28,079 nucleotides of DNA from Lachnospiraceae bacterium (GTDB taxonomy: Bacteria > Bacillota > Clostridia > Lachnospirales > Lachnospiraceae): NCBI GenBank assembly GCA_045600745.1, contig JAZRYN010000218.1, positions 1 to 28,079 of the forward strand, read 5' to 3'. A program made the position numbers and the translations under genes. Below, one piece after another: positions 1 to 1,950 of the stretch. The notes below the pieces were generated by a model that saw only the letters and a program-made list of their open reading frames with translations, did no database searches and was not told where the DNA came from. Position 1 is the stretch's first letter, and the number at the start of each line of letters is the position of its first letter.

Positions 1-1950
1 GGCACTGTTCGTTGCCGCAAGCAGCATTCCTTCGCTGGTCACGCCGGTCAGGCGGGCCGGCGTCAGGTTGCAGAGAACGATGATCTTTTTCCCTACCAGT
101 TCCTCACAGCTGTAATCATCCTTGATCGAGGAGACGATCACCCGCTCCCGGATGCCGTCAAAGAGGGTCAGCTTCAGATTGCTGCGGGCCTTGCGGATCT
201 CCTGCGCCTTAACGATACGGCAGACGCGAAGGTCGCTCTTCATAAAGTCTTCCCGGCTTATCAGAGGCGCCTCAAACGGCAAGACCGGATCGGGAGCACC
301 GTAGCTTCTCTTCTTTTTCGGTTCCTCGACAGGCGCTTCTTCTACTTCCGGGTGAAGCTCCTTTTCTGTCTTCGGTGCGGTAAAATCAAGAAGAGGAAGA
401 ATATCCTCCGGCTTCATGGCGTTCAGGAACAGATAGAGACGAGGGCCTCTCTCCTTTCCCAGCAAAAGCAGATAGACCAGCTTGAAAAAGCGTCCTTGAA
501 GCGCCTTAAGGTTGGCGGCGTCTGCCCCGTACACCTTTTTGGGGATGTCATAAAGCTCGGCATTTAAGGAATCAAGCGAATAACCGCCGGCAGCAATATA
601 GCTTCGCAGCCGTTCGATCTCCGACTTTTCCTCGTCCGTCAGCGTTTCGTAAAGTGAAAAGTCCCGGGTCGACCGCAGCTTGTTGGCCTGCTCCGGCGCG
701 CACTGCTCGAGCCAGTACCTGGCAAGCGCAAGCCGGTCGCCGAAATCTTCACGGGTATAAGGCATATTGATCTTGGCAAAAATCGTTTCCATCAGAGGCA
801 CGTCAAAATTGACGATCGAGCCGAGCTGAACGAGGAGGGACATGGGCGGCGTCTTCAGATTCGCCCCGCGCGTCAGGCAGTCCTCCATAGCAATCGTTCC
901 GTATTCATCCGTCCGTCCGGCAACGTAATCGCCGAATTGCTTGTCAAATTCGAAATACTGGCGCAGGATCCCGTCGTCAAAGCAAAAATCAAAGGCTTTC
1001 GTGGGATCGCAGCGGGAATACAGCCAAAGAAGGACTTCGGGCTGATAGATCTTCAGCAACGTTTCCGGGGTAAGGTTCAGCCCGGAGGAGCCGCTCATCT
1101 TGCCGGTCGCCCCCTTGATGCCGATAAACTCATAACCCTGGAAAAACGGTGCGTCATAGCCGAAGATCTCCTTTGCAATGACCCTCCCGTTGTCATAGCT
1201 GCCGCCGGGACTTGCATGATCCTTCCCGCCCGGTTCGAAATCAACGCCCTCATACAGCCAGCGCATCGGCCAGTCGACCTTCCACGCCAGCTTGCAGTCG
1301 GAATCCGTGTTGAAGTCAAAGATCCCCCTGTGGCCGCAGGCACAGACATACTCCGCCTTATCATCCTCCGAAAGGCTTAAGATCTTCGTGGTGTCACGGT
1401 GACAGACAGGGCAGTAGATGCTGACCGGATAATAGGCCTCGCGTTCGCCCTCCTGTGCGTCCTGGGTCCGGAAGCTGTCAAGGATGTCAAAAATGCGGCC
1501 GCGTTCGTGAAGCGCATGCAGAATATGCTCCCGGTAAGCGCCGCTCCTATACATTTCCGCCTGATAGCGGTAGTCTAACGGGATCCCGATCTTTTCCATT
1601 GACGCGATAAATTCATTTTCAAAATACGAAGCGTAGGATCTTGCGCCGCTGTCAAAGGGATCGGGAACATCCACATAGGGGTAGCCGATATACTGATCAA
1701 AATCATCACGCACTGCGGCCACATTTTTCGGGATCTTGCGCAGACGGTCGAATTCATCCCAGCTGAACAGGAGCTTCGCCTTTTTTCCGGCACGTTCAAG
1801 CGCCTTGACCACAAAATAGCTCGTGGCGATATCTCGGAAGTTGCCGATGTGGATAGAGCCGGAGGGACTGATTCCCGCGGCGCAGACGTATTCCTCCTTA
1901 TCCGGACGGCGGGCAATGATTTTCTGTGCTAATTCATCTGACCAGTGCAT
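1..1950 (-). CDS. lysK: Class I lysyl-tRNA synthetase (LysRS1) with C-terminal tRNA-binding OB-fold domain; 3' end runs off the window
   Basis: Not in the ORF track. Translated by hand from ATG at 1950 (RBS AGAGGTG): [12 protein letters not shown]...[16 protein letters not shown] (HIGN), [11 protein letters not shown], CPVC...CACGH zinc knuckle, [25 protein letters not shown], GPRL. After an acidic/Pro linker comes [13 protein letters not shown]...[13 protein letters not shown]...SEGMLLAA. I found no stop in the 1-1440 stretch checked codon by codon, and 1441-1950 reads as continuous LysRS1 sequence. Confidence 0.93.
   Translation of the reverse strand, partial: [650 protein letters not shown]

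Follow-up and report, generated by a model that had tools for sequence, protein, structure and literature searches.

The gene lysK, at the edge of a 28,079-nucleotide stretch of DNA from a Lachnospiraceae bacterium (contig JAZRYN010000218.1 of GenBank assembly GCA_045600745.1; the whole stretch is hereafter the window), codes for a class I lysyl-tRNA synthetase (LysRS1) that is fused in one reading frame to an OB-fold tRNA-binding domain of the type found at the C-terminus of methionyl-tRNA synthetase (MetRS-C) and in Trbp111. We give a probability of roughly 80% to the reading that this protein is the only lysyl-tRNA synthetase (LysRS) of its host, with an archaeal-type class I core tethered to an OB domain that probably captures tRNA and probably dimerises the enzyme, in a lineage from which the class II enzyme, encoded by lysS, has been lost. 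Class I LysRS thus joins the synthetases with appended Trbp/EMAPII-type OB domains, namely MetRS, PheRS, TyrRS and the LysRS of Entamoeba.

Domain architecture of the fusion protein

An initial annotation, made from the letters of the window alone, had claimed an open reading frame (ORF) of at least 650 codons with the motifs of class I LysRS, and all of these, namely HIGN, KMSGS, the cysteine knuckle and GPRL (residues 502-505), could be located in the predicted protein. Profile searches bear this out: residues 1-345 match the Pfam family PF01921 (tRNA-synt_1f) with E=2.9e-108 and 362.5 bits (cut-off 27), and the NCBIfam model for class I lysine--tRNA ligase, TIGR00467, is matched at 360.3 bits (cut-off 147.55). 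The four cysteines of the presumed zinc knuckle (C180, C183, C203 and C205) are invariant in 35 fusion and stand-alone LysRS1 proteins (alignment A3). Structural comparisons were run on P0002, a full-length homologue that shares 89% identity with the window protein. Its core aligns end-to-end with the LysRS1 of Pyrococcus horikoshii (PDB: 1IRX) over residues 1-513, with E=2.5e-96 and 32% identity. An AlphaFold2 model of P0002, with a mean predicted local distance difference test score (pLDDT) of 87.7, is made up of two confident modules and a low-confidence linker, and in Foldseek searches its core superposes on 1IRX with template modelling (TM) scores of 0.87-0.89. The low pLDDT of residues 282-291, around KMSGS, is expected of a mobile loop. 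Family cut-offs, signature motifs and, for P0002, full-length similarity in both sequence and fold all place the protein in class I, and, as judged from sequence and model, nothing is missing from its archaeal-type class I core, whose motifs and four-cysteine cluster are intact.

The core ends with LLDF at residue 523 (nucleotide 382), where an end near position 385 had been proposed, and the OB domain begins at about nucleotide 264, as against the earlier estimate of about 261. The segment between them had been described as acidic and proline-rich; the richness in proline stands (8 P in 39 residues), but a purely acidic character does not, as 5 K accompany its 8 E. In the appended domain residues 574-648 match PF01588 (tRNA_bind) with E=9.9e-18 and 64.5 bits (cut-off 27), covering positions 1-76 of the 96 in the profile before the contig end cuts the match; in the full-length homologue P0122 the match extends over positions 1-95 of 96 and scores 70.8 bits. 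Of the NCBIfam models, TIGR00399 (metG_C_term, MetRS beta) gives the appendage its highest score, with 94 bits for the incomplete copy in the window; the complete P0002 domain reaches 112 bits with it, against 62 bits or less with the Trbp and CsaA models. By sequence the appendage is MetRS-C-like, and it is not filed as a member of TIGR00399 because both scores lie below the cut-off of 116.65, that of P0002 only just. The P0002 OB domain also aligns with residues 7-110 of Aquifex Trbp111 (E of ~1e-21, ~42% identity), and the tail of the P0002 model superposes on 2cwp, 8vtz and 5h34 with TM scores of 0.88-0.93 and root-mean-square deviations (rmsd) of 1.4-1.9 Å (Foldseek). Pfam, NCBIfam, the Trbp111 alignment and Foldseek hence agree on the in-frame joining of LysRS1 to a MetRS-C/Trbp111-type OB domain that the initial annotation had put forward. 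Among 25 fusion proteins the mean pairwise identity is 75% in the OB domain, 77% in the catalytic domain and 47% in the linker, which is the least conserved part, and 43 of the 107 OB positions are invariant; the OB domain is under purifying selection.

Since lysK touches the contig end, and 235 bp nearly identical to part of the OB region recur out of context on another contig of the same assembly (C42), one might suspect the fusion to be an artefact, either of chimeric assembly or of reading two separate genes as one. This explanation is effectively refuted: inside the window a single frame runs uninterrupted through the core, the linker and 88 OB residues, an identical architecture is seen in more than 120 homologues, many of which lie on contigs of 100-535 kb that come from independent samples, and the intact copies of 14 other genomes of the genus have fusion-sized open frames.

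Absence of the class II enzyme

The initial annotation had suggested a non-orthologous replacement of lysS, and the genome comparisons argue strongly for it. In the metagenome-assembled genome (MAG) to which the window belongs (G000; 266 contigs, 82% complete, 6% contamination) no class II LysRS scores above the cut-off, the weak matches being AsnRS and AspRS. Among 121 genomes sampled from the family, class II LysRS is found in 101 and is missing from the three that carry the fusion (G000, G007 and G017). The same absence holds for the 19 genomes of the genus, 12 of which are of high quality, and for five fusion carriers from three other families, so that overall none of 26 fusion carriers has a class II enzyme. 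The genomic slot of the missing gene can also be followed: greA lies immediately upstream of lysS in all five class II carriers examined, and in the two genomes of the genus examined for it, G000 and its relative G137, greA is internal to its contig and is followed by ORFs without a Pfam match and without any synthetase domain. In another genome the fusion gene itself stands directly after greA and before asnS. That fusion carriers have lost class II lysS by non-orthologous replacement is strongly supported by these observations, and that the fusion is the sole housekeeping LysRS of the organism is well supported. The locus offers a clean natural case of the displacement of an essential enzyme by a non-orthologous one, with the fusion occupying the greA slot in one lineage.

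A different account would make lysK an auxiliary, condition-specific second LysRS, as in Bacillus cereus, with a class II lysS that is merely unassembled in the MAG. The incompleteness and contamination of G000, the frequent location of lysS at draft contig ends, the several near-complete relatives that show neither class, and the presence of both classes in G155, a carrier of stand-alone LysRS1, and in G095 all speak in its favour. Yet it has to contend with the lack of class II in every one of the 26 fusion carriers, which span four families and include the 12 high-quality genomes of the genus, and with a greA-lysS slot that is contig-internal and devoid of a synthetase gene in two genomes; furthermore, lysK has no T-box, its leader is shorter than 60 nt and its neighbours are housekeeping genes. 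We consider this account very improbable.

Several observations on LysRS genes in related drafts deserve mention in their own right. In five relatives that are 96-99% complete (G014, G018, G036, G082 and G115) no LysRS of either class was found. In other drafts class II lysS is very often situated a few hundred bases or less from the end of its contig, so that an adjoining repeat is probably what makes the gene drop out of assemblies. G095 has an intact class II lysS and also an archaeal-like LysRS1 (G095:C5:11947-13507; loci L015 and L018; 437 bits) that is split into two frames of 335 aa and 122 aa, perhaps a second LysRS that is decaying or has been frameshifted.

Two further propositions about the displacement were considered and set aside. 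The first is that the OB domain is required for it, which is ruled out by the stand-alone LysRS1 carriers of two other Clostridia families, four of five of which are without class II. The second is a co-evolution of tRNA-Lys with the class of LysRS. The tRNA-Lys(UUU) of G000 (C237:10254-10326) has a G2.U71 wobble pair, and in Borrelia a pair of this type is reportedly an anti-determinant for class II LysRS. The G2.U71 pair was found in all 43 family genomes examined (loci L038-L086), whatever their LysRS class, being present in every class II carrier (24 of 24) and every fusion carrier (16 of 16), so that it does not follow the class of the enzyme; tRNA-Lys(CUU) has G2:C71.

Predicted action of the OB domain and comparison with known systems

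We propose that the core would carry out tRNA-dependent activation of lysine and then its transfer to tRNA-Lys, and that the flexible tether of about 40 residues, rich in Pro, Glu and Lys, would join it to an OB domain acting in cis, probably as a general tRNA-capturing module like the MetRS C-domains and those of other synthetase-OB fusions. Capture could raise the local concentration of tRNA, lower the Km for tRNA-Lys and lead to hand-over of the tRNA to the core. Such capture might aid both steps of the reaction, as class I LysRS already depends on tRNA for activation of the amino acid (PMC7373986). Both flanks of the Trbp111 dimer interface (residues 1-15 and 90-111) are present in the P0002 alignment, and since these flanks of Trbp111 and MetRS are kept, they probably pair the enzyme into a dimer. 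The tRNA capture, the dimerisation and the kinetic benefit are what we infer from these analogous proteins.

Certain points weigh against the proposed reading as a whole or in part: 1) A co-crystal study of Trbp111 (PMC11286949) validated by mutation the tRNA-contact residues K33, R75, F78, S82 and M85, and three of these five are changed in the fusion OB domain (R75 to A, F78 to T and K33 to S), so that capture of the 3'-CA exactly as in Trbp111 is not assured; only S82 and M85 are retained, as is P74, and Arg is found at positions adjacent to the changed contacts. 2) G000 is incomplete, and with lysS often at the ends of draft contigs its absence from one MAG is weak evidence when taken alone. 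3) Class II LysRS is also absent from most carriers of a LysRS1 that stands alone. 4) A search for the 3' remainder of lysK across the MAG yielded 8 further residues, on contig C42, and the final 11 are unassembled.

The first of these points keeps alive the main rival of the proposed reading, according to which the OB domain no longer binds tRNA and either serves dimerisation alone or has a different ligand, for instance a peptide or protein as CsaA does, leaving the core unaided. It could likewise appeal to the retention of both dimer-forming flanks, to the CsaA chaperones being about equally near to the P0002 tail in fold (TM ~0.88), and to two clade-conserved cysteines that Trbp111 lacks. 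However, the fusion clade has kept the motif of the L45 loop (N, L, P, A, R, L, T, G, then S-E-G-M) largely unchanged, which is unexpected for a pure dimerisation role; MetRS C-domains, that of the host included, share the Ala at the R75 position; and the score of 62 bits with CsaA models compares with 112 bits for the MetRS-C model. We regard this rival as unlikely.

The two cysteines, in RVC and A-C-G motifs, vary hardly or not at all across the fusion clade, with none in Trbp111 at these places. One is Cys577 (window positions 220-222, minus strand) and the other falls at residue 651 of P0002, in a loop of low pLDDT; many members of the clade also end in Cys. Together with the altered 3'-end pocket, the two conserved cysteines allow the speculation, which we hold to be rather doubtful, that the OB domain has a function absent from MetRS-C and Trbp111. 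Such a role might be to hold the lysylated 3' end for hand-off or to exert redox-sensitive control over a dimeric LysRS1, and, if true, it might explain the wide spread of this LysRS1 lineage among gut anaerobes.

Comparison with characterised proteins helps to set the fusion in context: 1) P. horikoshii LysRS1 (PDB: 1IRX) is matched by the full length of the core, with the HIGH- and KMSKS-type motifs and the four-cysteine cluster; in contrast, the fusion has about 145 extra C-terminal residues, made up of the linker and the OB domain. 2) Dimeric MetRS likewise has a C-terminal Trbp111-like domain behind a linker, and the Ala at the R75 position is shared with the host MetRS-C, whereas the fusion OB domain, 37-44% identical to the C-domains of MetRS from the family, sits on another class I synthetase. 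3) Aquifex aeolicus Trbp111 (PDB: 1PYB, 8VTZ) resembles the appended domain over residues 7-110 (TM 0.88, rmsd 1.7 Å), in its dimer flanks and in S82, M85 and P74; it differs in being free-standing and in having R75, F78 and K33, which are replaced in the fusion OB domain. 4) Entamoeba histolytica LysRS (PDB: 4UP7) is also a LysRS with a C-terminal Trbp/EMAPII-type OB domain, but it is a eukaryotic class II enzyme whose added domain belongs to the longer, pseudo-dimeric EMAPII type; the likeness is a matter of convergence, the catalytic scaffolds being unrelated. 5) Bacillus cereus LysRS1 (lysK) is a class I LysRS of a Firmicute that retains class II LysRS and is T-box regulated (PMC2916919), whereas the window gene has neither a T-box nor a class II partner and has the OB domain. 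The OB fusions listed in a 2024 paper on Trbp111 are only those of MetRS, PheRS, TyrRS and the class II LysRS of Entamoeba, and we found no paper in the open full-text literature that describes a class I LysRS with a tRNA_bind domain.

Distribution, origin and gene setting of the fusion

A search of 5.8 billion clustered proteins, of which the best 120 matches were considered, gave homologues of 666-690 aa that are 66-89% identical to the query, and all 120 contain both PF01921 and PF01588. Several carry the NCBI name 'lysine--tRNA ligase [Lachnospiraceae bacterium]'. The idea that the architecture might be new accordingly does not survive: the fusion is common and already correctly named as lysine--tRNA ligase, and its annotation is unchanged by our analysis. 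In a second scan every protein was scored in a library of 1.84 billion representatives clustered at 50% identity, where, fragments apart, P0122 (62% identical) alone represents the full-length fusion. The closest LysRS1 proteins without a fused domain share 40-47% identity with the query and measure 516-531 aa, and these stand-alone relatives stop at LLDF or LLNV, precisely where the linker of the fusion starts.

Whole-genome searches with TIGR00467 recovered LysRS1 from all 19 genomes of the window's genus, and every copy there that is not cut by a contig end is a fusion-sized open frame. In the family sample, drawn as one genome per genus, 3 of the 121 genomes carry the fusion. The fusion was found in 6 of 349 genomes of a class-level sample, in three further families, with stand-alone LysRS1 in 4, and a phylum sample added one more family. 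The range of the fusion hence covers at least five families of Bacillota plus a MAG named Victivallaceae, the cluster of P0122 being so named and its 58-kb contig having a non-Firmicute-looking context. The abundance of the fusion in gut and rumen-type Clostridia means that the biochemistry of one member would apply to thousands of genomes.

The fusion proteins fall into one clade in a 118-sequence tree of LysRS1 cores (19 of 19; Shimodaira-Hasegawa-like approximate likelihood ratio test, SH-aLRT, 100) and in a more careful tree of 20 sequences (support 99/99), and because they form a single supported clade the fusion arose once. Of the earlier description of a lineage-specific fusion, a single origin is retained and confinement to one lineage is not, given its occurrence in several families. 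We considered incongruence in the gene tree as a sign of lateral transfer and rejected it: a quick tree suggested a split of f1, the family of the window, but in the more careful tree the approximately unbiased (AU) test does not reject its monophyly within the clade (p=0.08). The patchy distribution, the three differing gene contexts and the Victivallaceae member nevertheless lead us to infer that the fusion has spread laterally, although the gene tree does not demonstrate it. Relocation of the OB domain from the MetRS of the host was also rejected, as that protein retains its own OB C-domain, whose absence the initial annotation had suggested looking for. As to the donor, the 37-44% identity to MetRS C-domains of the family and ~42% to Trbp111 leave the domain too divergent, and it is too short, for any candidate to be singled out.

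Fusion to accessory domains is seen elsewhere in LysRS1. P0160 (692 aa; loci L089-L091, on metagenome contigs) is a second, independent fusion of LysRS1 with tRNA_bind, with a core 35% identical to the query, an unfused sister in the tree (P0156) and about 60 extra residues after the OB domain. The representative library further contains 1) LysRS1 with a C-terminal B3_4 domain, the tRNA-binding domain of PheRS-beta (768-777 aa); 2) LysRS1 with an N-terminal aldehyde dehydrogenase (1001-1051 aa); and 3) LysRS1 with a C-terminal metallophosphoesterase (779 aa); the representatives with these additions are P0172, P0173, P0142, P0149 and P0207. Accessory domains have been acquired repeatedly by LysRS1.

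The window is the entire contig C218 of the MAG, and lysK runs off its end; this is why the gene is open-ended and, as had been noticed, missing from the program-made ORF list. Its frame starts with an ATG at position 1950, preceded at 7 nt by the ribosome-binding site GAGGTG, and meets no stop codon before the contig end; in comparison with close homologues (666-690 aa) it falls short by 19 C-terminal residues. The OB piece on contig C42 (C42:9309-9560; locus L002:1477-1728, minus strand) comprises ~235 bp that are 99% identical to the lysK OB region for residues 575-658. It lies between a penicillin-binding-protein gene and low-GC ORFs without known function, with abrupt junctions on both sides. 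Chimeric assembly or strain variation is the probable source of this piece, which is likely the reason for the break of C218 within lysK. The features of the locus are collected in Table 1.

Table 1. Coordinates of lysK, its domains and motifs, and the adjacent features in the window
Feature	Position	Strand	Remarks
lysK, class I lysyl-tRNA synthetase with OB domain	1..1950	-	650 of ~669 codons; 3' end beyond contig end
MetRS-C/Trbp111-type OB-fold tRNA-binding domain, residues 563-650	1..264	-	last 19 residues missing
L45-loop motif, 15 residues, equivalent to the Trbp111 loop binding the tRNA 3'-CA	25..69	-	mapped by Trbp111 alignment (PMC11286949)
Pro/Glu/Lys-rich linker, residues 524-562	265..381	-	pLDDT 48-62 in P0002 model
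LysRS1 core, residues 1-523: Rossmann catalytic and helical anticodon-binding domains	382..1950	-	ends with LLDF
KMSGS, KMSKS-type mobile loop, residues 284-288	1087..1101	-	K284, M285, S286 and S288 nearly invariant
Four-Cys cluster, CPVC (180-183) ... CACGH (203-207)	1330..1413	-	presumed zinc knuckle
HIGN, HIGH-type class I signature, residues 34-37	1840..1851	-	H34, G36 and N37 invariant in alignment
Intergenic leader, 84 nt	1951..2034	-	ribosome-binding site and promoter-like site
Exonuclease III family gene, upstream of lysK	2035-2826	-	co-directional; Pfam
RNase Y gene, upstream of lysK	2912-4513	-	co-directional; Pfam

No T-box and no riboswitch, the lysine type included, was detected upstream of lysK, the whole window being free of Rfam matches at the gathering threshold. 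A promoter-like site, TTGAGT-17-TATACT, is present at 2007..1979, ~29 nt from the ATG of lysK. The gene order tyrS ... rny-xth-lysK is also found in one genome of the same genus. A tRNA-synt_1b (TyrRS-type) gene lies 1.5-7 kb from LysRS1-OB fusions in three unrelated contexts, namely at 9007-10227 (minus strand) in the window, at L087:1-1151 on the Victivallaceae contig and at L089:5848-6426 on the contig of P0160, and this proximity may be a coincidence.

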